DNA of 64,000 nucleotides from a virus. The stretch's first letter is position 1, and every line of letters begins with the position of its first letter. The position numbers and the translations under genes are program-made. The DNA is taken from the IMG/VR virus record IMGVR_UViG_3300037454_000146, positions 35,374-99,373 of that record; one strand, 5' to 3'. Shown here in pieces: positions 2,788 through 63,786 of this stretch. Under the pieces are notes generated by a model. That model was not told where the DNA came from and ran no database searches. It saw only the letters and a list, made by a program, of their open reading frames with translations.

Positions 2788-3306
2788 TTATGCCTTTCTT
2801 GCTTGCTCATCGTAAATAGTTGCCAAGTCCCAATCAATAGCATCTCTCACTCTGTAAAGTAGTTCTGCATCTCTCAGTTCTTTGTCAACGTCCTTAACGT
2901 ATTGCAAAACAAAGTCTGCGGCGGCTATCTCTGACATATCCACAAGGTTGCGATAGGAGTCCTCGTATATTACTTTGCTTTTCTTTTCCCACTCAATCCA
3001 CTCTTTAAGGGCGTACTGAATGAGATGAATTTTGTCATCTGGCGATAGCTTATCGTTTGGACGTTCTAATATGTCCAGATTCAATATATCCACTTGCGGT
3101 GGATTATCTGACGTTATCAGTATGTGATGATGTTGCGCGGCATACTTCTCTAACTTCAAAAGACCATCAGATTCGTCGTGAAGTTGCTTCTTCTGCCGTT
3201 TAGCATCGGCTTCGAGGTCTATGAAGTTGAACAGTTCCGTGAGCTGAGTGTGGATCATCATAGCCCCAACCATGCGGTTTGATAACTTCTTGAATATTTC
3301 GTGCAT
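2788..3306 (-). CDS. hypothetical helical protein
   Basis: ATG 3306 preceded by AAAGGAGGTG. The ORF track gives 2788..3324. Confidence 0.55.
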   Translation of the reverse strand: MHEIFKKLSNRMVGAMMIHTQLTELFNFIDLEADAKRQKKQLHDESDGLLKLEKYAAQHHHILITSDNPPQVDILNLDILERPNDKLSPDDKIHLIQYALKEWIEWEKKSKVIYEDSYRNLVDMSEIAAADFVLQYVKDVDKELRDAELLYRVRDAIDWDLATIYDEQARKA

Positions 3307-3417
3307 TGGCGCACCTCCTTTCATAGTAAAGGCGCAACCAAACTAATGATTGCGCCCATTTGCTTAAAAACGACAGCCACTTTTTGGCTATATACCGTTG
3401 TTTTAAATCCGATGAAA

Positions 3418-3504
3418 TTACCTTTTCTTATAATACAAATAGCCTACGGCTCTACCACCAATTCCCGCTATTAATAATCCTACTAAAAATTTAATTATTT
3501 CCAT
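3418..3504 (-). CDS. 28-aa single-pass membrane peptide (MEIIKFLVGLLIAGIGGRAVGYLYYKKR)
   Basis: Below the ORF-track cutoff and read by hand. ATG 3504, TAA 3420-3418, AAAGGTGA upstream. Hydrophobic core with a basic tail. Sits just downstream of the tail fibre gene. Confidence 0.4.
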   Translation of the reverse strand: MEIIKFLVGLLIAGIGGRAVGYLYYKKR

Positions 3505-3532
3505 ATCAAATCACCTTTTTATTGCAATACGA

Positions 3533-4579
3533 TTATACTATATATGCCCCTGTTTTCTTTACTATTGCAATATCGTTAAAGCTATAAGCCCCGTTTCCCT
3601 GTATACAATTAAGTATATTAATTTTGAAGATATAGTCGCCATTACTTAAAGCAGATACAGGCAGGGCTACTTTGAAATCTGCCGCCGAACCATTATGACC
3701 GAAAACAAGAGTATTATAATCAGATGATTTCGTGAATGTAAGGTAATATACGCCGTTATTTGTCATAATTATATTATCTGTAAGATACCGCACTAATGTA
3801 TTGCCATTAAACGCCGACATTTGAAATCTCAGATTTGTTTGAGTGTCGGTCGTGGTTTGAGTGATTATACCAGTTGATGTGTCGATAGTTGCATTAGCCT
3901 TTACACTCAAATTAGATACATTATAATTATTAGTCGCAAATGGCATAATAAGGCTTAATAAAATATTGTTTTTATTTGTTTCGATTTGCTCCACGTCCGC
4001 AGATGTAATACCGCTGTTCACTGCTGCAAGCTGTGCTGTGGTGAGTGTTGCCTGCTTGCCGTCGAGCGCTGACTTAACAACCTTGTTCTGTACAGGGTTT
4101 GTGGATGTTCCGTTGAGAGCAGAATCGACTGTTGTCTTGTTAGCCTGTACCTCTATACCAGCGAGTTTCGATTTCTCATCGTTAGTATAGTCATTCGTTG
4201 ACAGTCCCTTGCCTGTTTCGGGCTGTACTGCTGTTGCACCAAGAGCCGCACCGCTTCTGATTGTCGCAAGGTCTGAAATCGTATTCTGTTTTGAACCGAG
4301 AGCTGTGTCAACTTCTGTTTTTGTATAAGTTGTTGACTTATCAGCTTTATCATCGAGAGCAGTCTCAACGTCACCAAAGCTATCAAGTGTTTCTCCGTCC
4401 TTAATAGCCGCGATATCAGCTCTTGCAACAGTATCTTCGGAACTTACCTCACCAGATGCGTTGATTGTCTGTGTTCCGTCAGGATTATCTACTATCTGAA
4501 TGTTTGAACCGCCTTTAAAGTGGGAGTTTACATATTCCGCAGAACCGTTAAGAGCCGCGCCTAATGTTACTATATCCAT
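3533..4579 (-). CDS. tail fibre protein
   Basis: Repeated fibre-type motifs (KTEVDTALGSKQ, GKGLSTNDYTNDEKSKLAGIE, TVDSALNGTS, VVKSALDGKQ) followed by a C-terminal globular domain. Lies at the end of the tail module. Confidence 0.75.
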   Translation of the reverse strand: MDIVTLGAALNGSAEYVNSHFKGGSNIQIVDNPDGTQTINASGEVSSEDTVARADIAAIKDGETLDSFGDVETALDDKADKSTTYTKTEVDTALGSKQNTISDLATIRSGAALGATAVQPETGKGLSTNDYTNDEKSKLAGIEVQANKTTVDSALNGTSTNPVQNKVVKSALDGKQATLTTAQLAAVNSGITSADVEQIETNKNNILLSLIMPFATNNYNVSNLSVKANATIDTSTGIITQTTTDTQTNLRFQMSAFNGNTLVRYLTDNIIMTNNGVYYLTFTKSSDYNTLVFGHNGSAADFKVALPVSALSNGDYIFKINILNCIQGNGAYSFNDIAIVKKTGAYIV

Positions 4580-4595
4580 ATATTAAAACACCTCC

Positions 4596-4901
4596 TCACG
4601 CAAGAATAGTCGCCCATACATTAGTAAAACCGCTTGCACTATCAAGCGAGATTGTGTGCAGACCACTTGCGTCGGCGGCGTAAATTTCATTATCAGTTAT
4701 AGTGTCTACAACTGCAAAGTCCTTTAATCTAACCAGAGAAAGAACCTTATAATCGCCATTAGCGGTCAGCTTGCCAACCACCTTGCAAGAGCCTGTGCCT
4801 GAAGCCTTAATTCTGATGTCTGAACCAGTTGAAACTTTCATTTCATTTACGACACCATTTGCGTATAAGTCTCCATTAATAACAGAATATCTGTTTGCCA
4901 T
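4596..4901 (-). CDS. hypothetical tail-module protein
   Basis: 101-aa ORF between baseplate and fibre genes. Confidence 0.45.
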   Translation of the reverse strand: MANRYSVINGDLYANGVVNEMKVSTGSDIRIKASGTGSCKVVGKLTANGDYKVLSLVRLKDFAVVDTITDNEIYAADASGLHTISLDSASGFTNVWATILA

Positions 4902-4920
4902 AACTCATCACTTTCCTTTC

Positions 4921-5532
4921 TTACGCGGGCAGTAAGCAGAACACTTGTCCTACAAGCGTGTCGCCTTGCCCTATTGCATTGTGTAAAATAAAAGATAACT
5001 TGCCCGTGTGGAGTGTGTTGTCCTCAAACTTTGCCTCTATGTCATAGACGGCGCTGTCCGACAAATTGCGGAGCACACCGTAATAACTCCCCGAAATTGC
5101 CCCCACAGAGAACGGGTAAACATTTGCCACTGTTGCGATAGCGGTGTCAGCCGAAATTGCCGATTCCGCCGTTATTTGAAACGCCGCGAGAACAGCATTA
5201 TCGGTCATGCGAATTTGAATCACTGACGAATCCGCCAAATCCTCGCTTGCGGTAAACTCTAAGTCCGCGCTATGTTTGCTTTGCGCCGCCACAACATAAG
5301 ACGTAGAGTTGCTGATGTACCCGCGATACGCGAGCTTCACCTCGTCGCCGACCTCAATCAGCGAGCCACTCAGATTCTTTACAGTGAAAATACGTTTATC
5401 CGAAATCATCTCCACGCGCACGTAGTTGTTAGCCTGTAAAGCCAAAACCTTGCACGGCGCGATAGAGATAAAATCGGCATCGAGGAGGGCGGCTTGCACG
5501 CGCTCGTCAATGAGTTTTACTATCGTGTTCAT
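4921..5532 (-). CDS. hypothetical tail/baseplate protein
   Basis: 203-aa ORF overlapping the stop of 5529..7352 by 4 nt. Confidence 0.5.
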   Translation of the reverse strand: MNTIVKLIDERVQAALLDADFISIAPCKVLALQANNYVRVEMISDKRIFTVKNLSGSLIEVGDEVKLAYRGYISNSTSYVVAAQSKHSADLEFTASEDLADSSVIQIRMTDNAVLAAFQITAESAISADTAIATVANVYPFSVGAISGSYYGVLRNLSDSAVYDIEAKFEDNTLHTGKLSFILHNAIGQGDTLVGQVFCLLPA

Positions 5533-11389: not shown

Positions 11390-14300
11390 TTATCTGCGCG
11401 GCTTGAATACCTGACTTTCGGTCAGAACCGTCTGCATATAGGATTCCATTTGTCTCGCGAATTGCTCCGCGTTCTGTACGTTGGGGAGATTGATTACTGT
11501 GCCGTTAAATGTGACCGCGTTTGCCGTGTCGGATTTCTTGCCCAAATTCTGTGCGATTCGCATATTGCCCGTAATAGCAGAAGGTGTTAGCGCGGGAGAG
11601 TTGTGTAGCGCATTATAGAGCTTTGCCGCATCGGTCGAATTGAGCACGAGCTCGGGGCGTTGCTTTGTTCCGTGGAGCATTGCAAGTCCCGTATAAGTAT
11701 TCACTCCGCCGTCTGCGTATGCGCCTATTTTTCGTAAATATGCGTCCCAAGCCGAATTAACATCTTGATTATACTTAGACAAATCTTCTTTAACGATAGC
11801 TCTCCTAATACCATATTCGTCTACCTCTAACCTATCAAGTCTCTTTTCAATATCGTCTATGCGGTTGTCATAAGAAGAATAGTCCATACCCGCAACAGAC
11901 TCATTGAGTTCATCTTGGGCTTGAGTTAATTTGCTTATGATAGTCGAATACTTTTTATAAAACGAATCAAGATTTCGAGCCATATCGCCCTCGTCACTAC
12001 CCATGCTTAATGAAATATTGTAGGCTTCTTTATAAAAATCTTGAACCGAGTCTTTGGCTTCTTTCGCAACATTTTGCACCTTAGATTTGTATTCTTGCCA
12101 TTTCTTAATTTCTTTATCAACGGCTGCAATCTGTTTGTTTGAGGCTTCGATACTCTTATTTACAGCCACCATTTCTACATTAGAAACACGACTGAGCTCG
12201 TCGGCATACTTATCATATTCCGTTTCGTAATCATTAAGAATATCTAAGTCCTGCTCGGCAATCTTATCACGCCAATCAGCACCAAGTATCTGCTCGGCAA
12301 GTCGCTCATCTTCTGCTTTTTGCCTTTTTTGAGTAACACCTTCCCATTGTTTCAGATATTCCTCTAAGACCTTAATATCTTGATTAGCTTGCGCCTTATC
12401 TACTTCCCGTTGAGCCTTATCAATATCTGACTTCTTAGCCTCATACTGCCAACCGCCCGCTTCTGTATAGGTACGAACTTTCTTGTTTTTAGCATTTTCG
12501 AGATTTGCAAGTTTCTCCGCGAGGTCAAGAGCTTCTTCACGCTCCTCGTTCTGCTCCTTAATTGCTTCAATCTGTTCCTTGATAGCGTTTTGAACGGTAT
12601 TTGCAACCTTTTCGTAATTCTCAGTAATTTCTTCGAGAGCGTCTTTCTGTTCCTGCAAGACCGTGAGTTGCTCCTCCATTGCTTCTTTAGAGGCTTCAAT
12701 AGCAGATTTTTCAGCTTCATAACCCTCTATAACGGAATCAATTTTGTATTCCTGTGCCTTTAAAAGAGTGTCCGCTTCTTCATTGAGTTCTTTAGTAAGA
12801 TTGTTAAGCGCTTGCTGACGGTCTACTGTGTCACCAAGACTTCCGTTGTAATATTGCAACACAACATTATTGCGATCCCAATCCTCTCCAATCTCAACAA
12901 CTTTTTGTTCTGCCGTCTCTAACTGATTCTGCAATTCAACGTATTGATAATAGTTAGGATTGTGAGAGTTTTTACGCATTTCAGACCACGTGTTCATTTC
13001 AGCCCGAATTGAAGCTACTTCTTCTTGCGCGGCTTTTTTAGCATTAAGCAACTCAATTTGTTTGAGCTCTATAGATTGAATTTGTTTTTGAATATAAGCA
13101 TCTTTCAGGTCAATAAGTTGTTGCTCTGTGACTTTAAATTGTCCACTAATACTATCAAAACTTGCAGGACTTAAATATTTAGTGCCTAATTCGTCATCCA
13201 ACTTATACAAGTCCATAAATGCATCTCTGTCAATACCGTTGCCATTAGCAAGCGTCTGAAGTGCTGACTTCATAGCGTCGATATTCTTTAACGTCGTTTT
13301 CTTTAATTCGTCATAGCTTTCATACCAAGCCTCAGACATACTTTCGATTGCTGTAATTGCACCAGAAGCTCCTGTTTCAAAGGAAGAAAACAATGAATCT
13401 ACGTCTTGTTGCAAAGAAGGATAGTCTGCCCCAATTTTATTTAGCTCTTGCCTAATCTCATCAAGGCTTTGCGCCGCTTGTCTCTTTTTTATAGTGGTAT
13501 TATCACCCGCAATAACGTGATTTAATTCTTTGGCTTTATCAATCAAAGAATTGTAATTATCTAATACGTCTTGTGGAACTTCAAACGAATTATAATATTT
13601 GGTTTGACGCTCCATTTGGTCGGCATCGGCTTTATCAACTTCATATTTTGCTCTTGCCGCTACGTATTGCGCCATTAAGCCCTTATAAATATCTTCGTCA
13701 TATCCGTCGATTTCTTTATAAGTGTCGGCTATTTTTTTCCAGCCCTCAACTTGCTCCTCTAAAGTACCCATAACTGCAATGTCAGCTTCTTTGCCCCACA
13801 TATCAGTAGCTATATGGTCAAAAGCAACCCCTGTGTCATGGAACAGCTTTAACATATTAGACAAGTCGGTTGTTGTATCGGCTTTTATCTTTGCACGATA
13901 AAATTGAGTTGAATCAGAATCGGCAATTCTTGCATTTTTGTCAGTACCCTCAAGCGATTCAACGGCTTGTTTGTACCTCTTTTGATTTTCGGTATCGAAA
14001 ATGTAATCTTCAACCTTTTCTTTTTTTAACTGTCTTATCTTTTCAATTTCTTCCGATAATTTGCCATTAACCAAATCAATACCCTCGGCTTCTTCGCCAT
14101 ATTTGGATATTAATTCGCCTTGCATTGAAGATAATTCCTTTTGGATTCCAACTAAATCATCTGTAGAAGTATAAAGTTGAAGGTATCTATCCATTATTGA
14201 ATCTAACGAATTGATTTCCTCGCCCATAGCCTCTATAGATTGATGACCAGAATCGCGCAACTCTTTTGCGGCTTCAGCAGCTTTTTCTTCTGCGTGATAC

Positions 14301-14623
14301 CACTCGTCAATTTGTTTAACAACTAATGATAAAGCATAACTTAACCCAAATGATATAGCCGCATTAAGAGCTGCGGTTGCAACTTGTAATGCAATAGTCT
14401 TAGCACGAGCAACCACGAGGGATTTGACATACCCGCCCATTGTTGCTTCTGCACCATTAAGCCCTGATAGATAATTTTTTAGTCCGACATTCGAGCCGCT
14501 AATCTCATCATCAAAAGCCTCTTGGACATATTTAGCTTTATTAAGAGAATAGTTATAATCGTCTAAACTCGTTGTTATCTTCTTTATATCATTGCCAAAT
14601 TTACTAATGTCAGAACCGAATAT
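11390..14623 (-). CDS. tail tape measure protein, exon 2 (1,077 codons)
   Basis: No Shine-Dalgarno before ATG 14626. In frame with exon 1 after the predicted splice at 14624/14623. Long coiled-coil with hydrophobic helices near the N-terminus (TIALQVATAALNAAISFGLSYALSLVV). Confidence 0.7.
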   Translation of the reverse strand: MFGSDISKFGNDIKKITTSLDDYNYSLNKAKYVQEAFDDEISGSNVGLKNYLSGLNGAEATMGGYVKSLVVARAKTIALQVATAALNAAISFGLSYALSLVVKQIDEWYHAEEKAAEAAKELRDSGHQSIEAMGEEINSLDSIMDRYLQLYTSTDDLVGIQKELSSMQGELISKYGEEAEGIDLVNGKLSEEIEKIRQLKKEKVEDYIFDTENQKRYKQAVESLEGTDKNARIADSDSTQFYRAKIKADTTTDLSNMLKLFHDTGVAFDHIATDMWGKEADIAVMGTLEEQVEGWKKIADTYKEIDGYDEDIYKGLMAQYVAARAKYEVDKADADQMERQTKYYNSFEVPQDVLDNYNSLIDKAKELNHVIAGDNTTIKKRQAAQSLDEIRQELNKIGADYPSLQQDVDSLFSSFETGASGAITAIESMSEAWYESYDELKKTTLKNIDAMKSALQTLANGNGIDRDAFMDLYKLDDELGTKYLSPASFDSISGQFKVTEQQLIDLKDAYIQKQIQSIELKQIELLNAKKAAQEEVASIRAEMNTWSEMRKNSHNPNYYQYVELQNQLETAEQKVVEIGEDWDRNNVVLQYYNGSLGDTVDRQQALNNLTKELNEEADTLLKAQEYKIDSVIEGYEAEKSAIEASKEAMEEQLTVLQEQKDALEEITENYEKVANTVQNAIKEQIEAIKEQNEEREEALDLAEKLANLENAKNKKVRTYTEAGGWQYEAKKSDIDKAQREVDKAQANQDIKVLEEYLKQWEGVTQKRQKAEDERLAEQILGADWRDKIAEQDLDILNDYETEYDKYADELSRVSNVEMVAVNKSIEASNKQIAAVDKEIKKWQEYKSKVQNVAKEAKDSVQDFYKEAYNISLSMGSDEGDMARNLDSFYKKYSTIISKLTQAQDELNESVAGMDYSSYDNRIDDIEKRLDRLEVDEYGIRRAIVKEDLSKYNQDVNSAWDAYLRKIGAYADGGVNTYTGLAMLHGTKQRPELVLNSTDAAKLYNALHNSPALTPSAITGNMRIAQNLGKKSDTANAVTFNGTVINLPNVQNAEQFARQMESYMQTVLTESQVFKPRR

Positions 14624-14660
14624 CATATATTAAAAATCGTTTTTTTATTTGATTTTTAAC

Positions 14661-14689
14661 TTGACAAATTAGAAAATATTTGTTATAAT
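14661..14689 (+). promoter_or_regulatory. consensus sigma-A promoter for the zinc-ribbon gene
   Basis: TTGACA (14661-14666), 17-nt spacer, TATAAT (14684-14689). Confidence 0.7.
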
Positions 14690-14714
14690 ATAATAGAAGA
14701 AAGGGGTTGATGTT

Positions 14715-15230
14715 ATGAAAAATAATCTTATCAACGAAATTAAAAAATATTCAATCGCAGATTTAAAGATTATATTAGACACTCAACAAGATTTATATAC
14801 CATTGACGAGATGAACATTATTAGAGATTATTATGAAAAGTGTAAAAATGAATACATATCTAAGCACACACCAAAGCTAATCCCTTGCCCTAAATGTGAC
14901 GCGCAAAATGATTTTAATTCTACAACTTGCACATATTGTGGTCAACCTATAAACAACAAACCTTATTTAGATAGAATATGCAACGAAATGCTTGGGATTA
15001 TAACCGCAGAAGATGTGAAAGACGACAACGATGATTATAATGGCAAATCCCCCTCGTTCTTATTCCAGTATATAATCAGCTTCATAATACCTCTTATTGG
15101 TTTAATTGTAGGTGGCGTGTTTATTGCAAGCGATGACGAAGATAAGAACGCGTCGGGCAAGATTTGTATTGCGATTAGCATTATATCTATCATTGTAAGC
15201 ACCACTCTATATGTTTTAATATCAAAATAA
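14715..15230 (+). CDS. zinc-ribbon membrane protein (moron; possible exclusion or defence factor)
   Basis: CPKC...CTYC zinc ribbon and two C-terminal TM helices (FLFQYIISFIIPLIGLIVGGVFI; ICIAISIISIIVSTTLYVLI). AAAGGGG RBS. Opposite strand to all flanking late genes. Confidence 0.6.
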   Translation: MKNNLINEIKKYSIADLKIILDTQQDLYTIDEMNIIRDYYEKCKNEYISKHTPKLIPCPKCDAQNDFNSTTCTYCGQPINNKPYLDRICNEMLGIITAEDVKDDNDDYNGKSPSFLFQYIISFIIPLIGLIVGGVFIASDDEDKNASGKICIAISIISIIVSTTLYVLISK

Positions 15231-15234
15231 CCTC

Positions 15235-15263
15235 TTGACAAAATCTCTTGCTTGTGCTATAAT
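15235..15263 (+). promoter_or_regulatory. consensus sigma-A promoter for the repeat RNA and toxN-like gene
   Basis: TTGACA (15235-15240), 17-nt spacer, TATAAT (15258-15263). Confidence 0.7.
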
Positions 15264-15292
15264 AACCTTGCGGAGCAATCCGCACCGTGTCG

Positions 15293-15382
15293 TGTCGCTC
15301 CCGATTAGCGTCTAATAAATCATCGGATATGAATGTTTGTCGCTCTCTGATATGCGACTAATAAATCGTCAGACTCAAATCT
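15293..15382 (+). ncRNA. candidate type III antitoxin RNA: two imperfect ~45-nt tandem repeats
   Basis: Repeat units start at 15293 and 15338. Both begin TGTCGCTC and share the core GCG(T/A)CTAATAAATC(A/G)TC(G/A)GA. They lie between the promoter and the toxN-like ORF. Confidence 0.55.
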
Positions 15383-15408
15383 AAAGCCTTGCCTAATCGC
15401 AGGGCTTT
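15383..15408 (+). terminator. hairpin between repeat RNA and toxin ORF (attenuator-type terminator)
   Basis: AAAGCCUUGC-CUAAUC-GCAGGGCUUU, a 10-bp stem with one G.U pair. Only a weak U tract follows. Confidence 0.4.
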
Positions 15409-15425
15409 ACTATTAGGAGTATTTT

Positions 15426-15878
15426 ATGATTACAGGTCACTTCTATTTTCTCAAGCCAGAATATACACAACAATTTGCAAATCCAAAGTTTATGAATAAC
15501 AATGAACATAACCGCCCGTATTTCTGTGCCTTTACAGAGGATAGCCACATCTTTTGGCTTGTGCCGATTTCCTCTAAAGTGGATAAATTTGAACGTATTT
15601 ACAACAATAAAGTTGGTCGTTATGGTAAGTGTGACACCATTGATTTCTGCCACATCCTCGGCAGAAAGAAAGCGGTTTTAATCCAGAATATGTGTCCTGT
15701 AACACAAGAGTTTATTTTGAATGAGTATAACGATCCGCATGGTAAGCCAGTACAACTTTGTGAGAAAGTGCGCAAGCGCATTACTCATAAAGCAAAGAAA
15801 GTCCTCGTTCTTCACCGCAAAGGCGTTGACCTGTTGTTTGGGGACGTTCTAAAAATTAAAAAAGAATTATCAAAATAG
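15426..15878 (+). CDS. ToxN/AbiQ-family (type III TA) endoribonuclease toxin-like protein
   Basis: 150 aa. N-terminal FYFLKPEYTQQF, then NRPYFCAF...IFWLVPISSKVDKF. This resembles the ToxN/AbiQ pattern (FY..S.KY..YL ... Y.APLTSPK.K) as recalled from memory. TAGGAG RBS. Preceded by tandem repeats and a hairpin. Confidence 0.65.
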   Translation: MITGHFYFLKPEYTQQFANPKFMNNNEHNRPYFCAFTEDSHIFWLVPISSKVDKFERIYNNKVGRYGKCDTIDFCHILGRKKAVLIQNMCPVTQEFILNEYNDPHGKPVQLCEKVRKRITHKAKKVLVLHRKGVDLLFGDVLKIKKELSK

Positions 15879-15884
15879 TTGAAT

Positions 15885-16475
15885 ATCGTACCCCTAATTC
15901 CATTCACTGAGACTGAATTATGAGGTGATGAAAAAATGAGTTTTGTTTATAAACCCGTACACGTTAGAGCATATTATCGTATACGTTACGGCGCACTGGA
16001 ATATGTGCGTGAACACTATCGCTCATATCCCATAAGATAATGGGAGTTCACCAGTAATTTGGTCAGGATTCAAACTCTTTAATCCAGTGGACGGAACTAA
16101 GGGTACGATTTTTCTGCTTTCTCCACGCTTGCAGTAGCGCAAAACAATAGGGGAGAATCCTCTTTGAAACCAACGCATTTCTGCGCCTATGGACTATATC
16201 TTTGTGGTGTTACGCCACAGCTTCTTTTAGTCTCTGAACCTTCCCTTGCGGGCTTGGCTGCTGATTAACCGTTAAACAACCTTTAGCTTTTGAGCATGGG
16301 TTATCCGCATAATTTTTTCTGCTTTCGCAACATTCACGCTTGCAACCAGTGGTTGCTACGTTGTAGTCTACGCGGCTTTGGGTACTTCCAGCAATTAAAA
16401 AGCTCATTTGTGAGGGACGTATCACCCCGCAACAATTTCGTAACAATGCGAGGTTAGGCATATTCGGTTAGGTTT
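15885..16475 (-). ncRNA. group I ribozyme core and peripheral stems
   Basis: Minus-strand elements: P AAUUGCUGGAAG (16396-16385), Q AAUCAGCAGCC (16266-16256), R GGUUCAGAGACUAAA (16240-16226), S AAGAUAUAGUCC (16202-16191). GNRA hairpin CCCGCAAGGG (16252-16243). A 17-bp closing stem pairs 16109-16093 with 15901-15885. Confidence 0.75.
15936..16040 (+). CDS. possible 34-aa basic peptide (MSFVYKPVHVRAYYRIRYGALEYVREHYRSYPIR)
   Basis: GAGGTGA 7 nt upstream of the ATG. Lies inside a peripheral stem-loop of the intron on the opposite strand and may be fortuitous. Confidence 0.2.
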   Translation: MSFVYKPVHVRAYYRIRYGALEYVREHYRSYPIR

Positions 16476-18989
16476 ACCTATCCCTTTGAAGCTGCCGACA
16501 GCGGCGAGCCCTGTAAGTAAAGTCGGGAGTGTCCCGAACTTGTCGATGATTTTTGTCAGTATCTCTAAAAACTCTTTGGCGGTGTCTACCACGCCCTTAA
16601 TAAAGTCGCTACCTACGACCGTCTGAGCGAGGTCTTGGTATGCCGCCTTTAAGCTGTCAATAGAATACTGAATCGACTTCGCGTATTCTTCTTGCTCGCG
16701 ACGTGCAGAGCCCGCAGAACCCTCGGCGGTCTTGTAAACCTTTTCAAGCAACTCGCCGTTTTCGAGGATTGCCGCACCTATATTCGACTGACGTTTGCCA
16801 AATAGCTGCTCAAGAACTGAGCTTCGCGAGAGGTCATCAAGTTGACCCCACACCTTAGAGATTTCGAGAAGAATCTGATATGTTGATTTATATGTTGTGT
16901 CGTCAAGCTGAATGTCTACGCCTGTAAGCGCAAGCATCTGCTGTCTGAGCTTCGATATATTTTCAGCCGCACCCTCTGCATCCTCACCAATCTGTTCAAG
17001 CTCTGTCTTGGTTGAACGGAGACGAAGTGATACGGTTTTGATGCCCTGTCCGACAGTGGTCGGGTCTTGGGCGACAGTGTTTGCCGTGGTGATAAGCGCT
17101 ATACTTTCGCTCAGAGTGTTATTTCCAGCCGCTAACGCGGAAGCAGAGCGTTTGAGAGCCTCACCTATACCACCAGAAGATATTGCGAAGTTATTGCCGA
17201 CTTCGTTAAATTTGTCTACAATTTCTATCGAGTTCTGCGCCTCTATATTAAAGGCTTTCATCGTAGACACTAAATCTTCTGCCGCTTGTGTTTCAGTTAT
17301 GCCGTCGCCGACATTCTGATAAAGTATCGCAACCTTACCGAGCTCCTCCGCGTCGGGCAAAGATTCACCCAGTCGTGCAAAGGTGCTTGTGGCGTTGATT
17401 ACGTCGGTTATGCTCGCACCGAGCTCTTTGGCGGTATTGCCCGCAGACTTCTGAAATTTTCTGAAATCTTCTTCGGTCGCTTCAGTAACCTTGCGAAGTT
17501 CAACCATTGCCGTGTCAAGCGCCGTTACCTCGTTTACCATATCTCTAATCTGCCTCTTGACAAAATTAAAGACCATATTCGCGGTAATGTAGCTCGACAT
17601 TAGTTTGAATGAATTTAAGAATTTACCCCAAGCACTTTCACCTTTGAGTCCTGCGGCTTCAGCCTCTTTACCAAAGATGCGGAACTCCTCGCCAAGATGT
17701 TTAACTTCACTCGCGCTCAAATCCGCGCCTTTCGCCATACGAGATGTCAAGTCCGCCCACTTGGAGGCGAAAGTTGTGCCGTCAGACATTTGCTTGGTAG
17801 AATCTATGGCTCTCTTATTAGCAGAAGCATACGCTTGCATATCTGCTGAGAGTTTCTTAATCTTATTAGATAAAGAAGTTTCTCGACTAAGAGCCTTTTC
17901 TTCCTTTTGAGCCGCCTTTAAACCATTGGTAATATCTTGAATGGCTTGGCTTACTTCTCCATATTTCTTACTCCATTCTAAGCCACGACCAGATTCACTT
18001 TCAATCCGCTGCAACTCTACGAGATTTTTACTTGCATTTGCAAGATTGTCACCCAAAGACGATTTCGCGGACTCATCTGATAGAGCATCTATATCTTTTC
18101 TTAACGCATTAAGCGTATTATCAAAATTTTTAGCTTTGTTAATTGCGTTATCAAATATATTAAAGGAACTTCCAGTCGATTTTAGCGACGTTCCGATATT
18201 AGCCGCAGCCGTCTTGAGATTATCAAGTGCCTTCTGTGCGGATTCCACAGAGCCAACGCCAGACTCTAAATCAATAATGGCGTTACGAGCTGTGGTCAGC
18301 GGCTCAATTAAACCACTTTCGATTGATTTGTGGCTTGCCTCGAAATTAGCAAGCTCTTTACTTAGTCTTGCTAAATCTTGCTGTATTTTGCCAACGCCCT
18401 TGTCAGAATAAGAACCACCAATATACTCAAACTTTTGACCAGTAGAATCAAGCAAGAAATTAAGTTCTCTAACCTCGCCAGAAGCAGCCTGTATTCTCGC
18501 AATTATCTTATTTATACTATCCGCCGACTCTTGATCGTTATATTTGCCTGTAACGGTAACAGTACCCAATGATGATAGGCGACTTTGTATTGTAGCCATT
18601 GTACGCTCGGCGTTGATTATCCCGTCTGCATTTGTCGCAACCTTAAACGGCTCAACAAACCTACTATCTAAATCCGCAAGCGTTTTCTTTAAAGTGAGAA
18701 CTTTGTTTGTTACAGTTTCGACACTCTTAGCAACATTCTCGATGTTTTGCGCCGATTGTCCAGTACCAGCCTGTATTTCTATTTTGGGAATATCTATTTT
18801 CAGTTTTTTAGATATTTCGCTAACTTGATTTTGCAGAGTAGCCAAACTGTTTGTGTCGAGACTACAAGCTATTGATAATGCTTTGTTGGCATCCAATCGC
18901 TTTTTAACTTCTTCTAAATCTTTTTCAATTGTACTGACGGTCTTGGGTATGTCCAAACTCGCCACTATTTCAATTCTGTTATCGTCCAT
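16476..18989 (-). CDS. tail tape measure protein, exon 1 (838 codons; TP901-type core)
   Basis: Contains NTAKELGASITDVINATSTFARLGESLPDAEELGKVAILYQNVGDG...ISSGGIGEALKRSASALAAGNNTLSESIALITTANTVAQDPTTVGQGIKTVSLRL. The unspliced frame runs 17 further codons into the intron and stops at 16422. Confidence 0.8.
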
Positions 18990-20702: not shown

Positions 20703-21794
20703 TTATTCTGCGTATTTCCAGATGCAATTGGCATATATTTCTTTCTTATTCTGACAACATAGTGACACATAATAAGAATTATATCCATTTTGTTTTATTT
20801 CTGAGAGCGATGCATATTGATTTAATAAAACATTATTCATATCATATTGCTCATATTTAATAGCGTTCTGTTGCGATTGCAATTCTTGATAATATAAACG
20901 GTCATTCTCCAAATTTTCGGTCGATTCATTTTCGTATCTCCACACATAACCAAAAGCAGTATCAACCATTCTCCTACAACAAGACGAAATCAGCGATCTG
21001 TTTGTATAACCAGTTTTATCTTCAATTTCTCTAATTGAATTAAAACTACAAATTAGATTCATACCCATATCGTATTGATTAATTTTTAATCTTTGAGCCT
21101 TTTCATTAGCATAATCCAAGCGTTTTTGTAACAACTCATCAGAATAATCTTCCTCTTTAATCCATATAAATCCTTTATAAGAACGCTTAATACCACTTGC
21201 TACCGCTGACACACAGCTATGAATATAGCCATCTTGTTCAGCCTCTGTCAATGAATTGTATTTATGAAGTATTTCTCCACTATCTTTATCTATTTTATAT
21301 ATAGGACGAATACAACGTTCTTTATTTCTTTCAGCAATTCCCGTATTATCTTTTGTATAATCAGTTCTTTTCTTTCGAGTGCCAGAAGCCCAAGATTCTT
21401 TTTGAGCTTTTCTCATATTATTACAAGCATCAGCAGGAATTGGAACTCCCAAATGAGCCATTGATTGCCTAAGTCGTGTTTCCTCAGTAATTTCTTTATT
21501 TAAATTTCCGCCTTTTTCAATATTAAATCCTCTTTTAAGATTTGTAGAATCGTAAAAAGCAATTAATTCAATTTCTTTTGTTTCAGCTTCTTCTTTTGAT
21601 AAATTATCATACAATATCTCCGAAACTATACAATCCCATCCGTTTTTTAATATGAATCTGAAGAAGTGAATATTGTCTTTATACCCTCGACCTCTATCAA
21701 ACCTTCTTTTCGGGTTTTTCTGACAAGTGACTCCGATATATACTCGACCATCTGGGACAGTGTGTTTATACACTTTATATTTCTTTTCTTCCAT
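20703..21794 (-). CDS. GIY-YIG homing endonuclease with three NUMOD/IENR-like DNA-binding repeats
   Basis: YKVYKHTVPDGRVYIGVT...R...E...N core. Three C-terminal repeats of the type Y(D/K)...L..(Y/F)(N/A)S..E(A/I)......(G)Y....(I/V)S..C......(G/A)(F/Y/C)(I/V)W. Confidence 0.75.
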   Translation of the reverse strand: MEEKKYKVYKHTVPDGRVYIGVTCQKNPKRRFDRGRGYKDNIHFFRFILKNGWDCIVSEILYDNLSKEEAETKEIELIAFYDSTNLKRGFNIEKGGNLNKEITEETRLRQSMAHLGVPIPADACNNMRKAQKESWASGTRKKRTDYTKDNTGIAERNKERCIRPIYKIDKDSGEILHKYNSLTEAEQDGYIHSCVSAVASGIKRSYKGFIWIKEEDYSDELLQKRLDYANEKAQRLKINQYDMGMNLICSFNSIREIEDKTGYTNRSLISSCCRRMVDTAFGYVWRYENESTENLENDRLYYQELQSQQNAIKYEQYDMNNVLLNQYASLSEIKQNGYNSYYVSLCCQNKKEIYANCIWKYAE

Positions 21795-36319: not shown

Positions 36320-37348
36320 CTATTTTATATCAGCAATACCCTTATTTTCTTGCTGTATAATGCCATCTGCGCTAAAGTATTTACCAAAGTCATCAGCCGC
36401 AGAAGCATCGTTGTAGTGGCTAATCATTTCTACAGACTCCCACTTGAAAAATTCTTTTATAACTTCTGACGGTATGTTCATTTGAACGAGCTCGGTACAC
36501 AATGCGTGTCTAAGAGCATGAAAATAGAAAGGACAACCGAGAATCTGAGTAAACTCATCTTTCCAATTCTCAATATCTGTTCTCTGTTCCCAAACGTCGC
36601 CGCGCTTTATAACAAGAACCCACTCACTGTCAATACCTAATTCTTCACGCTTCTTGCGCCATAAATCCATATAGGTATCAACTTTATTCATTACATACTT
36701 GTTTATCTGTTTGCCACGCACACCACGACCTTTGGCTCTTACCTTATCTGTTTTATAAAGGCAACCAAACTCTAAGTGGTCTGTGTTAAAGTATTCCATT
36801 TTCATTTGAAGCAGTTCTGCCTTACGCATACCTGAATAAGCAAGAATTGCAATGCAAACAGCCCTATCATATTCTTCACGTTTTACAAGTTCATCAAGTA
36901 ACTTCTGCACCTGTTCTGTAGAAAGCACAGTCTTTTCTCTGACGGCTTCATTTACAGGCGACTCAATTTTCTTGATAATACTGCGGTAATCTTCGTAACC
37001 TTCTTCCTCGTCCAATATGTTCTCGATATAATTGGAAAGGGAAGAAATTGTGGATTTAACTCGCCTTATCCTACGAGGACTCCATTTCCACACATTAAGA
37101 GCATGATTCTGAAATCTCGCAAAGTCACGTTTACTAATCTTGATAAATTCCTTATTGGCGTTTTCCTCTAAATTCCAAACAAAGAATATTTCAAGGTCAG
37201 AATTATATGCAAAAATAGTCTTAGGACTTCTGTCAATTGAAGCAAGGTAATCAAGAAAGTCTTTGCTCAACTGAACATTTTCGGGATTAATCTGCTTAAT
37301 CTTTTCATCGCTTGTAATCTTGTTGTAAACCGTTGATCTGCCTTCCAT
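36320..37348 (-). CDS. tyrosine recombinase / integrase
   Basis: N-terminal SAM-like core-binding domain. Catalytic-type residues in YSGMRKAELLQM, HALRHALCTELV and MISHYND. Confidence 0.8.
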   Translation of the reverse strand: MEGRSTVYNKITSDEKIKQINPENVQLSKDFLDYLASIDRSPKTIFAYNSDLEIFFVWNLEENANKEFIKISKRDFARFQNHALNVWKWSPRRIRRVKSTISSLSNYIENILDEEEGYEDYRSIIKKIESPVNEAVREKTVLSTEQVQKLLDELVKREEYDRAVCIAILAYSGMRKAELLQMKMEYFNTDHLEFGCLYKTDKVRAKGRGVRGKQINKYVMNKVDTYMDLWRKKREELGIDSEWVLVIKRGDVWEQRTDIENWKDEFTQILGCPFYFHALRHALCTELVQMNIPSEVIKEFFKWESVEMISHYNDASAADDFGKYFSADGIIQQENKGIADIK

Positions 37349-40294: not shown

Positions 40295-41101
40295 CTAATT
40301 TGAAATTTCACTTAAATCATTAAGATAAGCATATTCACCATATAACTCGATAGCCTTATCGTTATACGCTTTTGCAGCATCATATAACGTTTCAAAACAG
40401 CCTAAACTCAATCTCTTGTTTTTAAATCCAATGCGAGCTACAAACTTTTTAATAGATTTGTGATAAGAAACACCTTTAATATTAGTAGAAGAATAAGCAG
40501 ACAAACCTTTATTATAATTATTCTTCTCTTGAGTGCATATTCTCAGATTGGATTTCCTATTATCCATTGTATTGCCATTTTTATGGTCTACAACCACAGC
40601 ATTATCATCCAAAACCTTCATTAATAATCTTGACAAAGTGATATAGCCACGCCTTTTAACTCCATCTATCTTATTATAGTCTTTCATTGTTGTACAAAGA
40701 TATTGCGAGTCGTTTATGCTGCCATCTTTATGCTTTATCCTTTTATGATTTATATGCCAACAAAAATTTTCAACTATCGGTCTATCTTCTATGTCGAAAT
40801 AAAATTCTTCACCTTTAGAAGTATATCCAATGCAATAACCATCTTTTTCTTCTATGCGATTTCTTTTCTTCTTGGACATTATATTTTTTTCAATCATAAG
40901 ACATCCGCATGATATCGTTGGCTTTCTTTTCCTCTTTAAATTTTTCCCTGTTACATAAGTGATAGTGTGATTAGGACACGAACATTGACACTTCCATTTA
41001 GCCTCATGTTCCCCGCTTGGACTAATATAATCCTCTGCTTGTTCAAGCACCACTAACCTACCGAAAGTTTTTCCTGTTAAATCTTCTTTAACCTTTACCA
41101 T
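40295..41101 (-). CDS. HNH homing endonuclease with AP2 DNA-binding domain and N-terminal zinc module
   Basis: DLTGKTFGRLVVL...WKCQCSC...SCGC. HNH: VDHKNGNTMDNRKSNLRICTQEKNN. AP2-like: GVSYHKSIKKFVARIGFKNKRLSLGCFETLYDAAKAYNDKA. Confidence 0.75.
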   Translation of the reverse strand: MVKVKEDLTGKTFGRLVVLEQAEDYISPSGEHEAKWKCQCSCPNHTITYVTGKNLKRKRKPTISCGCLMIEKNIMSKKKRNRIEEKDGYCIGYTSKGEEFYFDIEDRPIVENFCWHINHKRIKHKDGSINDSQYLCTTMKDYNKIDGVKRRGYITLSRLLMKVLDDNAVVVDHKNGNTMDNRKSNLRICTQEKNNYNKGLSAYSSTNIKGVSYHKSIKKFVARIGFKNKRLSLGCFETLYDAAKAYNDKAIELYGEYAYLNDLSEISN

Positions 41102-57320: not shown

Positions 57321-58040
57321 ATGAATGCAAACGTAAACACACAGATTGACAACATGGTAGACAACAAAGAGGAAGCAATAAAACAATATTGTAATGACAT
57401 AATTAACTTCATACATCAAGACGTTAGCGGACTAAAGATAGCATGGAATATGTACTTAATAGAAGGATGCAAAGATAGAAATGTCGTGTACTTTATTGAA
57501 AATGCGGAAAATCATAATGTGAAGATAGGAAAAACAACTGATTTGATAACAAGATTAAAGAGACTACAGGATTGTGCGTCGCAAATTGGCATGCCTTTAC
57601 CCCACCTAAAATGCAGGTGTGTTATTTGTTGCTCTACTAAAAAAGAATGCCATGCGTTGGAAAAAGAACTGCATAATCGGTATAAAAGCAAGCGTTGTGT
57701 TGGGGAATGGTTTAATATTTCAATTGAAGAAATAAAAAAATATTTAGACAAATGTTATGCAGAGCCTATAATTATAAATAACATACTTGTATATTGTGGA
57801 CTTCCAGATGTTGAAGATATGGAAATGCCATTGATTATCGGAGATGACTACAATCGTTTTGTGGATTTATTGAATTACCTTAAAACTCATTCATTTGAAG
57901 AACATAATTTTTGGATAAAGAAATACTGTGGTATAACGTTTACAGAAGCAACTAATATTTATTGTCAATATAAGAATCGGAGATTGGATGATTTTATTAA
58001 AGATTTTTACGCGCCCTATCTTCCTAAAAATGACGAATAA
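57321..58040 (+). CDS. T5orf172 (GIY-YIG-superfamily) domain protein
   Basis: VVYFIENAENHNVKIGKTTDLITRLKRLQ...EKELHNRYKSKRCVGEWFNI matches the T5orf172/MUG113 pattern. Confidence 0.6.
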   Translation: MNANVNTQIDNMVDNKEEAIKQYCNDIINFIHQDVSGLKIAWNMYLIEGCKDRNVVYFIENAENHNVKIGKTTDLITRLKRLQDCASQIGMPLPHLKCRCVICCSTKKECHALEKELHNRYKSKRCVGEWFNISIEEIKKYLDKCYAEPIIINNILVYCGLPDVEDMEMPLIIGDDYNRFVDLLNYLKTHSFEEHNFWIKKYCGITFTEATNIYCQYKNRRLDDFIKDFYAPYLPKNDE

Positions 58041-58882: not shown

Positions 58883-58894
58883 GGAGTGGTTGCT

Positions 58895-59821
58895 ATGCTA
58901 GCAAACGCAAAAGAACAGTGCAACATAATAGAGATGTTTCCGCAGAACAAGCCCGACTTCTCAGCGATGATCCCTCAGAGCATACTGCCTGATACCGAGA
59001 AGGAACTCAATGAAGTTATCAGCATAGAGGATAACATGGCGGACTCCGAAGGAATGGACGCTATGAATGAGTCTATATTTAATGGCATGATTGACTATCT
59101 ATTGGAAAAAGGCAAGACAAGAGATGCACTGATGTACGTATTACAGGCGAATTTCGGAATACGCCACAGTGATCTCATTAAGCTAAAGCTCATAAACCTG
59201 ATTGACGTTGACGGAAATTTCCGCGATAAAGTTAATTGGTGCGAGCAGAAAACAAGCAAAACTCGCCAGTATGTAATTAACGATGCAGTCAAAGCGGCGA
59301 CTATTATTTATCTCAGGACTCACGCAGATAAGAAGTTGACCGACTTCCTGTTCACGGCAGAGGGGAAAAATAAGGGATATAAGAAGGCAACCTATAAAGA
59401 CGAGAACGGAAAAGTCAAGGCACTTAGAGTGAACGGAAAATTTGTCTATGAGCGCGACGAGAACGGCAATCTTATTCCAGAACCGCTACGCAGAGATCAG
59501 GCGGAGAACACCTTGAAAGATGCTCTCATTGCCATAGGCGTAAAGCTGAAGAACGACAGACGTTGCAAAGATGGTGAGTACAAACTAAATACGCACAGCA
59601 ATCGGAAATTTTACAGCGAAAAGTTTAGTGAGGTTGCTTATGAGTTAAAGGCAAGTGGAAAGCTTAATGTGGATGCCGATGTGTTAGCATTGGTACAGCT
59701 TGATTTACGTCATAGCTCAATGCAGACTACGATGCGATATAACCACAGTTTTGATAGAATAAAGGAGGTTGTTTGTCGGAATATGAACATCGGTCTTTCC
59801 GTCTTGGAGAGATACCTTTAA
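58895..59821 (+). CDS. tyrosine recombinase / integrase
   Basis: GIRHSDLIKLK (Arg), NTHSNRKF (His..Arg) and LRHSSMQTTMRYNH (His...Tyr). Confidence 0.75.
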   Translation: MLANAKEQCNIIEMFPQNKPDFSAMIPQSILPDTEKELNEVISIEDNMADSEGMDAMNESIFNGMIDYLLEKGKTRDALMYVLQANFGIRHSDLIKLKLINLIDVDGNFRDKVNWCEQKTSKTRQYVINDAVKAATIIYLRTHADKKLTDFLFTAEGKNKGYKKATYKDENGKVKALRVNGKFVYERDENGNLIPEPLRRDQAENTLKDALIAIGVKLKNDRRCKDGEYKLNTHSNRKFYSEKFSEVAYELKASGKLNVDADVLALVQLDLRHSSMQTTMRYNHSFDRIKEVVCRNMNIGLSVLERYL

Positions 59822-59948: not shown

Positions 59949-61064
59949 GTGGCAAACAAAGCGTATAAATTTAGGCTATATCCGAATGAAGAACAAAAGA
60001 TATTATTTGCAAAAACCTTTGGTTGTGTCAGATTTATCTACAATCAAATGCTTTCGGATAAGATAGCACACTATAAAGAAACTGGAATGAAACTCAATAA
60101 TACTCCTGCACAATACAAGAAAGAGTTTGAGTGGCTTAAAGAAGTTGACAGTCTTGCCCTTGCAAATGCACAAATGAATTTACAGGCTGCTTATAACAAC
60201 TTCTTTAGAACACCTAAAGTCGGCTTTCCTAAATTCAAAAGTAAAAAGAGAGATAAAGATAGCTACACTACTAATAATTGTCATTCAACTAACCAAAATA
60301 ATGGCACGGTTAGTATTATTGACGGTAAACTCAGACTTCCTAAAGTTGGTCTTGTGAGAATGCTGCAACACAGAACTATTCCAGTAACCGAAAAGATTAA
60401 GTCGGCTACAATTACAAGAACGCCATCTGGCAAATATTATGCTTCTATTCTTGTGGAGTATGACAAAATTATTCCTGAGATAGAATTATCAAAGGATAAG
60501 GCGATAGGATTAGATTACGCAAGTCATAGCTTTTATGTCGATAGTCAAGGCAGAGAAGCAGACTATCCTAAGTTCTATCGTAAGGCGCAAGACAAGCTGG
60601 CACGTGAGCAACGCAAACTTGCCAACATGAAGTATGGTAGCAATAACTACCACAAACAGAAAATCAAAGTTGCGAGAGTTCACGAAAAGATTGCAAATCA
60701 GCGTTTGGATTGGATTCATAAACTCAGTACACAGTTAGCAAACGAATACGATATAGTTTGTGTGGAAGATATAAATATGCAGAACATGGCAAAGTCACTA
60801 AAATTAGGAAAGTCAACTAATGACAATGGTTTTGGAATGTTTCGAGATATTCTTTCTTACAAACTTGCTGACCGTGGCAAAGCATTTGTAAAGATTGATA
60901 AGTGGTTTCCGTCGAGCAAGATGTGCAGGCGTTGCGGTTCTATAAACCATGAGCTTACACTTTCGGACAGAGTTTGGACTTGTAGTTGCGGAGCTACAAT
61001 CAATCGTGATGAGAACGCTGCAATAAACATAATGAATGAAGGTTTGAGAATGTTATTCTCATAA
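59949..61064 (+). CDS. tnpB: TnpB (RuvC-like RNA-guided nuclease, OrfB_IS605 type)
   Basis: N-terminus KAYKFRLYPNEEQ. RuvC residues in IGLDYAS, VCVEDINMQNM and INRDENAAINI. Zinc finger CRRCG...CSCG. GTG start. Confidence 0.85.
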   Translation: MANKAYKFRLYPNEEQKILFAKTFGCVRFIYNQMLSDKIAHYKETGMKLNNTPAQYKKEFEWLKEVDSLALANAQMNLQAAYNNFFRTPKVGFPKFKSKKRDKDSYTTNNCHSTNQNNGTVSIIDGKLRLPKVGLVRMLQHRTIPVTEKIKSATITRTPSGKYYASILVEYDKIIPEIELSKDKAIGLDYASHSFYVDSQGREADYPKFYRKAQDKLAREQRKLANMKYGSNNYHKQKIKVARVHEKIANQRLDWIHKLSTQLANEYDIVCVEDINMQNMAKSLKLGKSTNDNGFGMFRDILSYKLADRGKAFVKIDKWFPSSKMCRRCGSINHELTLSDRVWTCSCGATINRDENAAINIMNEGLRMLFS

Positions 61065-63491: not shown

Positions 63492-63567
63492 TGAAGCGTA
63501 GTCAAGCGGTTAAGACAACAGATTTTGACTCTGCCATTCGGAGGTTCAAATCCTCTCGCTTCAACCA
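63492..63567 (+). tRNA. trnQ: tRNA-Gln (anticodon UUG), CCA encoded
   Basis: Hand-folded cloverleaf. Acceptor TGAAGCG/CGCTTCA (U1-A72), anticodon loop TTTTGAC, T arm GGAGG-TTCAAAT-CCTCT. Confidence 0.75.
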
Positions 63568-63700
63568 TGTGTTTCTTCATCTAATAGTTCCTTTCAGATG
63601 CCCTGCGGAGAGGGCAAAATCTCCGCAAATTTTAAAATCTACACACTTTGGCTTTGTCATTGTGTTGACCTCCTAAGCCCGTCATTGTGGCGGGCAATAA

Positions 63701-63783
63701 GCTCCCTTGCTGGAATAGGCAGACAGGGCAGTCTCAAAAACTGTTGCGAAAGCGTGTGGGTTCAAGTCCCACAGGGAGCACCA
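63701..63783 (+). tRNA. trnL: tRNA-Leu (anticodon CAA), long variable arm, CCA encoded
   Basis: Acceptor GCTCCCT/AGGGAGC, anticodon stem GCAGT/ACTGT with loop CTCAAAA, variable arm TGCGAAAGCG, T arm GTGGG-TTCAAGT-CCCAC. Confidence 0.75.
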
Positions 63784-63786
63784 AAT

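Follow-up and report, generated by a model that had tools for sequence, protein, structure and literature searches.

The tape-measure gene in a 64,000-nucleotide (nt) stretch of viral DNA (IMG/VR record IMGVR_UViG_3300037454_000146, positions 35,374 to 99,373; hereafter the window, numbered from its first letter) is very likely a single gene interrupted by a group I intron that combines a ribozyme at its 5' end with a 3' bay of antisense cargo units. The intron occupies 14624-16475 on the minus strand (1,852 nt), passing from the ribozyme into the cargo region and ending at the predicted omega-G, G14624. A preliminary description of the same DNA had proposed an intron of this extent, and that reading is supported but was incomplete: only ~360 nt (16475-16120) are ribozyme, and the remaining 1.5 kilobases (kb) hold plus-strand genes, antisense to the intron, which it had overlooked. 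These genes form the only real plus-strand island within a 49-kb block of minus-strand genes.

Two reading frames probably form one tape-measure gene

The sequence bears out the two minus-strand open reading frames (ORFs) that had first drawn attention to the site. One (16422-18989; 855 amino acids (aa)) stops 17 codons past ...GSFKGIG, and the other (11390-14626; 1,078 aa) begins at an ATG at 14626 that is indeed not preceded by a Shine-Dalgarno sequence; joining 16476 to 14623 yields a single in-frame ORF of 1,915 aa (...GSFKGIG/IFGSDISKF..., the slash marking the junction) with zero internal stops. Predicted exon 1 (16476-18989, minus strand) thus comprises 838 codons of TP901/PhageMin_Tail type (Pfam PF10145, 73.6 bits), and predicted exon 2 (11390-14623, minus strand) comprises 1,077 codons and the stop codon, without a ribosome-binding site of its own.

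We compared a 600-aa query centred on the junction with its 120 closest protein clusters. In 72 of these the alignment ends at residue 838 (±3) and the proteins terminate at most 70 residues later in unconserved tails, whereas 30 extend past the junction into exon 2, by at most 225 residues; contiguous homologues align 160-225 residues into it. Intron-less homologues, a comparison that the preliminary description had listed among its checks, are contiguous at the exact junction (P0056 'GHG/IFQAEG', P0015 'KIG/FF', P0067 'FKGIG/F'), as are uninterrupted prophage alleles among the related loci (L021 'VKGHG/IFPTEG', L023 'FQGKG/LFGVDG', L026 'FQGVG/LFTTIEDEAK'). The interrupted locus L013, once spliced in silico, reads 'FKNIG/IFSTIEDEAT', close to the uninterrupted L026. 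Across intron-less alleles the codons at the insertion site vary.

A ribozyme core under structural selection

A covariance-model search, likewise put forward as a check, places a group I core at the 5' end of the interruption: Rfam model RF00028 matches 16457-16171 on the minus strand over its full length (model positions 1-253) with 60.7 bits (E = 6e-13), above the gathering score of 50. From the Rfam alignment and co-variation we delimit a ribozyme of ~360 nt (16120-16475, minus strand), running from P1 to a post-P9 hairpin. The four classical core elements lie where the preliminary description had put them (P 16396-16385, Q 16266-16256, R 16240-16226, S 16202-16191), as does the CCC-GCAA-GGG hairpin at 16252-16243, which is P6 with its GCAA loop. 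The other helices, all on the minus strand, are P2 (16453-16447 with 16431-16425), P3 (16404-16400 with 16223-16219), P4 (16393-16388 with 16264-16259), P5 with a large extension, P7 (16232-16228 with 16196-16192), P8 (16218-16215 with 16207-16204), P9 with a GAAA loop (16186-16173) and the P9.1-like post-P9 hairpin (16156-16120). At the DNA level, the P3-P5 region resembles many Firmicutes phage introns.

To count co-variation, we wrote the canonical helices, including the P3/P7 pseudoknot, by hand onto a MAFFT alignment of the ribozyme and five relatives (six sequences from two lineages, a supportive rather than exhaustive sample), with controls in which the 3' partners were slid. Paired cells amounted to 88%, compared with 31-45% in the slid controls, and double-change pairs to 11, compared with 2-4; 0 of 500 shuffles attained the observed values. 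P3, P4, P5, P6, P7 and the post-P9 hairpin were 94-100% paired, with compensatory pairs at four of the five positions of P3, at one in P7 and at two in the post-P9 hairpin, whereas P2 and P2.1, for which the MAFFT alignment is out of register, scored poorly. The ribozyme core is under structural selection. Two candidate results were set aside: 'four compensatory pairs' in P2.1, dropped as register-dependent, and an RNAalifold structure, replaced because it wrongly joined P2 to P8 and because the program has no means of representing the P3/P7 pseudoknot. As a separate observation, the ribozyme has two copies of the motif GCAAGCGUG...GAAAGCAGAAAAA on the minus strand, at 16314-16344 in the P5 extension and at 16109-16133 in the post-P9 hairpin; these may reflect an internal duplication or act as paired tertiary-contact modules.

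Guide sequences track both exons across relatives

The proposed splice sites rest on two pairings of one internal guide sequence (16455-16469, minus strand). In P1, the exon end UAGGU (16480-16476) pairs with GCCUA (16459-16455), closing on the wobble U16476.G16459; the guide GAAUAU-GCCUA that had been pointed out at 16465-16455 is correctly positioned. P10 had been described as six base pairs (bp); the pairing stands but its length does not, as an unprompted inverted-repeat search recovered 10 of 10 bp between the guide's P10 strand AACCGAAUAU (16469-16460) and AUAUUCGGUU (14623-14614, minus strand), the exon-2 strand (100% complementary over 10 nt). This P10 target begins directly after G14624, in agreement with its assignment as omega-G, and the 11-mer formed by G and AUAUUCGGUU has a single occurrence in the window, at the predicted 3' splice site. 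Taken together, P1, P10, the in-frame join and the intron-less homologues fix the predicted intron boundaries.

Twelve interrupted loci could be joined (the window, L001, L004, L009, L013, L015, L016, L018, L024 and L061 and, less completely, L051 and L069); in each the final intron base is G and the join is in frame, and exon 2 starts AUAUU(C/U), encoding 'G/IF...', in all except L024 (CUAUUU). The loci represent at least four ribozyme lineages that have diverged from one another, and in them changes in the guide sequence are matched by changes in both exons. Exon and guide strands of P1 change together (UAGGU with GCCUA, AUCGGU with GCCGAU, GUGGGU with GCUCAC, CUGGGU with GCUCAG), a pattern seen in L013, L018, L015, L061 and L024, and P10 does likewise: besides AUAUUCGGUU with AACCGAAUAU, we found AUAUUCUCU with AGAGAAUAU, AUAUUCACAC with GUGUGAAUAU, AUAUUUGG with CCAAAUAU and AUAUUCAAAACA with UGUUUUGAAUAU, the last of 12 bp, the short forms of the others being ...GGUU with AACC..., ...UCU with AGA..., ...ACAC with GUGU... 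and AUAUUU with AAAUAU. Such co-variation would be difficult to account for if these RNAs did not splice precisely where predicted.

The window also contains a candidate cryptic 3' splice site closer to the core, G15887/AUAUUC (15886-15887, minus strand; intron position 589), at the end of a hairpin element described below; it would form a P10 of 6 bp, and the joined frame would stop after 24 codons. The site recurs in L004 and is absent from L001. This site, and the end of the Rfam match at 16171, could suggest an ordinary intron of ~360-590 nt with a separate mobile island just downstream and the real 3' exon elsewhere. We consider this extremely improbable, since homologues align to exon 2 from exactly 14623 ('G/IFG...'), the ORF list holds no tape-measure-like coding on the minus strand between 16171 and 14624, and L001, which lacks the proximal site, follows the same distal logic.

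The 3' part of the intron carries predicted antisense transcription units

Between ribozyme and 3' splice site lie two predicted plus-strand units. Unit 1 (14661-15230) has a promoter at 14661-14689 that matches TTGACA-17-TATAAT at 12/12 positions, includes an extended -10 and is separated from the 3' splice site by 37 nt. Its gene (14715-15230) encodes a protein of 171 aa that combines a zinc ribbon with a membrane-spanning part at the C-terminus. Pfam zinc-ribbon matches to this protein are below threshold, and PHROG and PADLOC searches gave no match.

Unit 2 combines a putative cptI antitoxin with a cptN toxin gene of the endoribonuclease family. The antitoxin unit (15235-15409, plus strand) opens with another 12/12 sigma-70-type promoter with an extended -10 (15235-15263), followed by a 5' hairpin (15268-15284, plus strand) and two direct repeats of 45 nt (15293-15337 and 15338-15382) recovered by a repeat search and a custom period scan; Tandem Repeats Finder reported no repeats upstream of the toxin, as two diverged copies score below its threshold. 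A hairpin at 15382-15409 (plus strand), with a weak T-run behind it, precedes the Shine-Dalgarno sequence and ATG of the toxin gene (15426-15878, plus strand; 150 aa, antisense to the intron). Its product matches CptN of PDB 4RMO (4RMO_A; E = 7e-21, residues 1-136 of 150) and phrog_33519 (E = 6e-19), and its weak matches to Pfam ToxN and PADLOC AbiQ are consistent with a sister family. In sequence, unit 2 fits the published cptIN architecture, in which 1.9-3.4 copies of a 40-48-nt repeat are followed by a terminator and a ~149-aa toxin (PMC3401426); the processed CptI unit is 45 nt (PMC4627078). A two-unit CptI array is common to seven loci (the window, L001, L004, L005, L007, L009 and L022), and the internal stem of the repeats shows compensatory changes between units.

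An inverted-repeat element of 231 nt (15882-16112), with 28-nt inverted repeats that are 82% complementary, separates ribozyme and toxin gene. It contains a 34-codon ORF (15936-16040, plus strand; MSFVYKPVHVRAYYRIRYGALEYVREHYRSYPIR) with a strong Shine-Dalgarno sequence and without a family match, and is found in L004 and absent from L001. Because its plus-strand hairpin is followed by a T-run, the element may serve as a terminator for the toxin unit. Searches of Pfam, PADLOC and PHROG detected no homing-endonuclease domain in the 171-aa, 150-aa or 34-aa ORF, and Pfam and PHROG no transposase or TnpB match among the cargo ORFs.

One codon hosts different cargo across related phages

Judged by its Yom/Yon-type structural genes, the window belongs to a large SPbeta-like phage group of gut Clostridia. 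Related tape-measure genes have a chromosomal location in Lachnospiraceae, Eubacteriales, Ruminococcus and others, which makes at least the wider group temperate, and the window encodes integrase-family proteins. Among cultured phages we found no close DNA relative beyond the intron core.

Cargo differs among at least 15 loci at the same glycine codon and appears to be exchangeable. L001, whose ribozyme is 92% identical to that of the window, carries a diverged CptIN (53% identical) and a 90-aa membrane protein; L004, of another ribozyme lineage, carries the window's toxin (99% identical) together with the 90-aa gene of L001. Two loci share the lineage of L004: L009 holds CptIN only, with 6 nt between its -35 hexamer and the 3' splice site, whose counterpart in L016 adjoins a 107-aa CptN-like ORF as cargo. 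Lipoprotein or membrane proteins occupy L011 and L015 (lineage D), and zinc-ribbon proteins occupy L013, L017, L018, L024 and L044, all interrupted at the site, with the 3' site solved only in L013, L018 and L024. The solved 2,992-nt intron of L061, whose ribozyme matches that of L015 with many hairpin compensations, encodes DarT (E = 4e-32), DarG (E = 2.5e-94) and an antisense zinc-ribbon gene. Two further loci are interrupted at the site with unsolved 3' splice sites, L060 by an NsnA-like (GmrSD-type) gene and L072 by a PD-T4-2-like pair (GmrSD-type and HEPN). PADLOC matches are strong for the DarTG of L061 and for PD-T4-2 subunit A of L072, subunit B reaching E = 5e-5; for the zinc-ribbon, membrane and lipoprotein cargo, Pfam, PHROGs and PADLOC returned nothing informative.

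Some regularities accompany this variety. The gene adjoining the 3' splice site is almost always antisense, 12/12 promoters recur in the window, L001 and L009, terminators abut the ribozyme, and introns of cargo-bearing design span 959-2,992 nt. The zinc-ribbon family lies antisense beside the 3' splice site in L013 (7370-7846), L017 (6401-6880), L018 (6951-7415), L061 (7281-7736) and L051 (6584-6871); its C-terminus reads roughly KPKCPTCGS..KIS..SK..G..GL.SK...QF.C..CGYKW, and it has no informative family match.

In L005, L006 and L007 a CptIN cassette lies antisense between two tail genes, the tape-measure gene being uninterrupted in L005 and L007. CptIN cassettes are therefore mobile modules for which the 3' region of the intron is one landing place. 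These plainly intergenic cassettes would also suit a different history, in which a ribozyme relic separates two polypeptides (855 and 1,078 aa, the second read from ATG 14626) and the intervening genes are ordinary intergenic morons. That gene callers annotate two ORFs in every relative, and that ATG 14626-14624 falls exactly at the intron end in the window, L001 and L004, would agree with it. We nevertheless judge it very improbable: the ATG has no Shine-Dalgarno sequence to start from, the intron ends in UUG rather than AUG in L009, L013, L015 and L018, the tails of exon 1 past the junction are unconserved read-through of intron RNA, and intron-less homologues are single proteins. Moreover, P1 and P10 have been kept by compensatory changes in at least four lineages, which would be pointless without splicing, and the ribozyme core is structurally selected.

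The spread of the design also bears on whether the intron of the window is still active. A once-functional intron could have lost correct splicing here, through the 1.5 kb of cargo or the cryptic site at 15887, in a defective prophage or phage; the long distance from core to omega-G and the stop 24 codons beyond the proximal G/AUAUUC (6-bp P10, intron position 589) would be in keeping with this, and the case for activity in this copy is built from sequence comparison. We find such a loss quite improbable, as both exons retain long intact ORFs (838 and 1,077 codons), P10 pairs over 10 of 10 bp at the distal site versus 6 bp at the cryptic one, many diverged relatives with intact exons share the cargo-bearing design (introns of 959-2,992 nt), and interruption in 72 of the 120 closest clusters marks a common state rather than a rare accident.

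Rfam scores among relatives are uneven: RF00028 gives 62 bits for L001, 50.2 for L011 and 44.4 for L004. A strict splice-site solver resolved 2 of 18 interrupted genome loci (L024 and L061) and a relaxed solver none of the rest; L051 and L069 were solved by hand, and neither solver placed the splice sites of L027, L029, L044, L060 and L072. Candidate group II introns in L025, L033, L057, L065 and L073 were withdrawn, as Rfam finds none. In L033 (5718-5831) and L073 (5828-5951), a ribosomal protein L10 leader lies ~800 nt past a tape-measure-like fragment that stops near the site, and these two loci are probably prophage ends or remnants beside host genes rather than introns.

Several other features of the relatives deserve mention. 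L004 has a second interruption of ~1.29 kb in tape-measure exon 1 (3036-4328), with a sense-strand 309-aa ORF showing weak Vsr-like and zinc-finger matches, and this one resembles a classical endonuclease-bearing intron. L006 has a separate group I intron (4879-5200, minus strand; Rfam 59.6 bits) directly after a truncated tube-like gene, so introns seem to occur in several tail genes of these phages. In L013 (3830-4882), L015 (3884-4930), L017 (2827-3879) and L018 (2827-3876), a tyrosine-integrase-family gene (~350 aa) directly precedes the tape-measure gene and shares its strand, in the middle of the tail module, an odd position for such a gene.

How a spliced cargo bay could work

Sequence, structure, co-variation, homology and gene content can be combined into a mechanism. 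The late minus-strand transcript would fold the ribozyme core at the intron's 5' end; an external guanosine would attack after U16476, held in P1 by its U.G pair; the 10-bp P10 would bring the distant omega-G 14624 into the G-binding site; and exon ligation would give the 1,915-aa tape measure. The bay would hold two self-contained transcription units on the opposite strand, CptIN and the zinc-ribbon membrane protein. Their consensus promoters suggest expression independent of the late operon, and most likely the cargo is expressed in this way, for example from the prophage, to supply accessory or anti-phage functions, with toxin-antitoxin activity predicted for CptIN and a defence phenotype possible. 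The cargo terminators should spare the sense transcript, because in the sense direction an A-run precedes the hairpin, and cargo would be tolerated at no cost within an essential structural gene because the whole insert would be spliced out. The intron would thus act as a safe harbour and, across relatives, as a hot spot for cassette exchange.

Some points weigh against this picture. It assumes splicing with an omega-G 1.5 kb from the core, for which the cryptic G/AUAUUC at 15887/15886, nearer the core, could compete, and the late transcript could be disturbed by transcription that runs against it from the two consensus promoters. Single-sequence folding energy is no better than that of shuffles (z = -0.52), an uninformative measure here, so the evidence for the ribozyme is comparative and not thermodynamic. 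RF00028 is silent on L009, L013, L015 and L061 even with permissive thresholds, and the group I identity of the lineages it misses is argued from motifs, hairpin compensation and P1/P10 logic; L009 is clearly homologous to L004 and L011, for which reason we read the misses as low model sensitivity and not as intron absence, and L061 and L015 have group I R and S boxes and hairpin co-variation. The cargo of L060 and L072 is placed only within the interruption, whose 5' part resembles lineage C and whose 3' sites are unsolved. As to defence, the window toxin has SSK where the CptN of Eubacterium rectale (E. rectale) has SSR, CptIN gave Escherichia coli no protection against six coliphages tested, and abortive-infection activity has never been demonstrated for it (PMC3401426).

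A stronger version, in which the intron is a dedicated, exchangeable carrier of defence or accessory genes and is functionally coupled to its cargo, strikes us as unlikely but worth stating. Late transcription would yield intron RNA perfectly antisense to the CptI repeats and the cptN mRNA, and induction and splicing would release a 1.85-kb RNA that could reset the toxin-antitoxin pair, either silencing the toxin for the phage or unleashing it. Whole cassettes might spread between phages by intron homing or by recombination in the exon flanks, because the intron that harbours the cargo sits at the tape measure's most conserved codon, and a nearby free-standing NUMOD1 endonuclease could perhaps assist in trans.

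Other mobile genes in the window

NUMOD1 domains are typical of homing endonucleases. The window encodes a 363-aa NUMOD1-domain protein (20703-21794, minus strand) in the tail module, ~1.7 kb upstream of the tape-measure start, at a position that is empty in L009 and L011; it may be a free-standing endonuclease acting in trans on the endonuclease-less intron. Also present are an HNH+AP2 endonuclease, a GIY-YIG/T5orf172 protein, two tyrosine-recombinase-family proteins and three transfer RNA genes, with an IS605-type TnpB (59949-61064, plus strand) 45 kb from the intron. The regions concerned are 40295-41101 (minus), 57321-58040 (plus), 59949-61064 (plus), 36320-37348 (minus), 58886-59821 (plus) and 63492-63871 (plus).

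Implications

Tape-measure proteins set tail length; at ~0.15 nm per residue, the predicted 1,915 aa would correspond to a tail of ~290 nm. In this clade of gut Clostridia phages and prophages annotation routinely breaks the tape measure into two genes by mistake, with 72 of the 120 closest clusters split at the codon, and recognizing the intron would restore tape measures of 1,900 aa to over 2,800 aa. Because the Rfam model misses several ribozyme lineages, group I introns of these lineages are probably under-counted. More broadly, self-splicing may turn an essential structural gene into a landing pad for independently transcribed accessory genes: one codon hosts CptIN, DarTG, NsnA-like and PD-T4-2-like genes, lipoproteins and zinc-ribbon proteins across relatives. 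Island-finding methods built on intergenic hot spots would miss a hot spot for defence genes or morons that lies within a gene. For CptIN, the locus offers a natural setting on a phage of its native host group in which abortive infection or addiction can be studied.

Comparison with known systems

The nearest precedents are the tape-measure introns TMP-IVS1, TMP-IVS2 and TMP-IVS3 of Bacillus cereus-group prophages (Tourasse & Kolsto 2008; PMC2504315). According to the available part of that report, they resemble the predicted window intron in being self-splicing group I introns at conserved sites of a prophage tape-measure gene, different lineages adapt P1 and the guide to one shared site, a trait also seen among the relatives of the window, and many, like the window's, are without a complete homing endonuclease. 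They differ in being described there as ribozymes with or without endonuclease remnants, that part reporting no unrelated or antisense cargo (PMC2504315), and their hosts are Bacilli, whereas the window's group inhabits gut Clostridia. Tape-measure group I introns have thus been known since 2008. For a group I intron with exchangeable antisense or defence genes inside it, by contrast, we found no description in the searchable, incomplete literature; antisense ORFs and tape-measure genes alike go unmentioned in a 2014 review of group I introns in bacteria.

IStrons (CdISt1 and relatives) are group I introns with an IS605 element embedded at the 3' end (PMC3984707, PMC4227781). The shared plan is a 5' ribozyme, a foreign DNA module between core and 3' splice site, and an insertion that splicing neutralizes. 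However, IStron cargo is the element's own transposase and TnpB, and the 3' part of the window intron, with no TnpA or TnpB embedded in it, carries an antisense toxin-antitoxin pair and membrane and zinc-ribbon proteins with their own promoters. Classical phage introns (T4 td, nrdB and sunY, those of SPO1 and Twort, and the I-TevI-like case of Enterocloster phage CB457P1) have the same core with the ORF region outside it; in sunY the ORF is likewise 3' of the core. In mobile introns of this kind sense-strand homing-endonuclease ORFs drive mobility, whereas the cargo of the window intron is antisense and contains no detected endonuclease domain, which sets it apart from homing introns that encode their own enzyme.

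The cargo, for its part, resembles E. rectale CptIN (Blower 2012, Rao 2015) in its homologous ~150-aa toxin, 45-nt tandem repeats, intervening hairpin and gut Clostridia hosts. The 33 cptIN loci known by 2012 were all classed as chromosomal, with no phage-borne case among them and no role assigned (PMC3401426); unlike them, the window's CptIN lies inside the intron of a phage structural gene. We found no CptN homologue in 50,697 cultured phage records.

Finally, the moron and defence hot spots of prophages (for example P2/P4; PMC9122126) likewise hold variable, independently transcribed cassettes at a fixed position in syntenic phages and prophages, and the tape-measure site shares their marks: promoters of its own, flanking terminators and variable cargo at a fixed site. 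Known hot spots are intergenic, whereas that of the window lies inside an essential gene, where tolerance of the cargo would depend on splicing.

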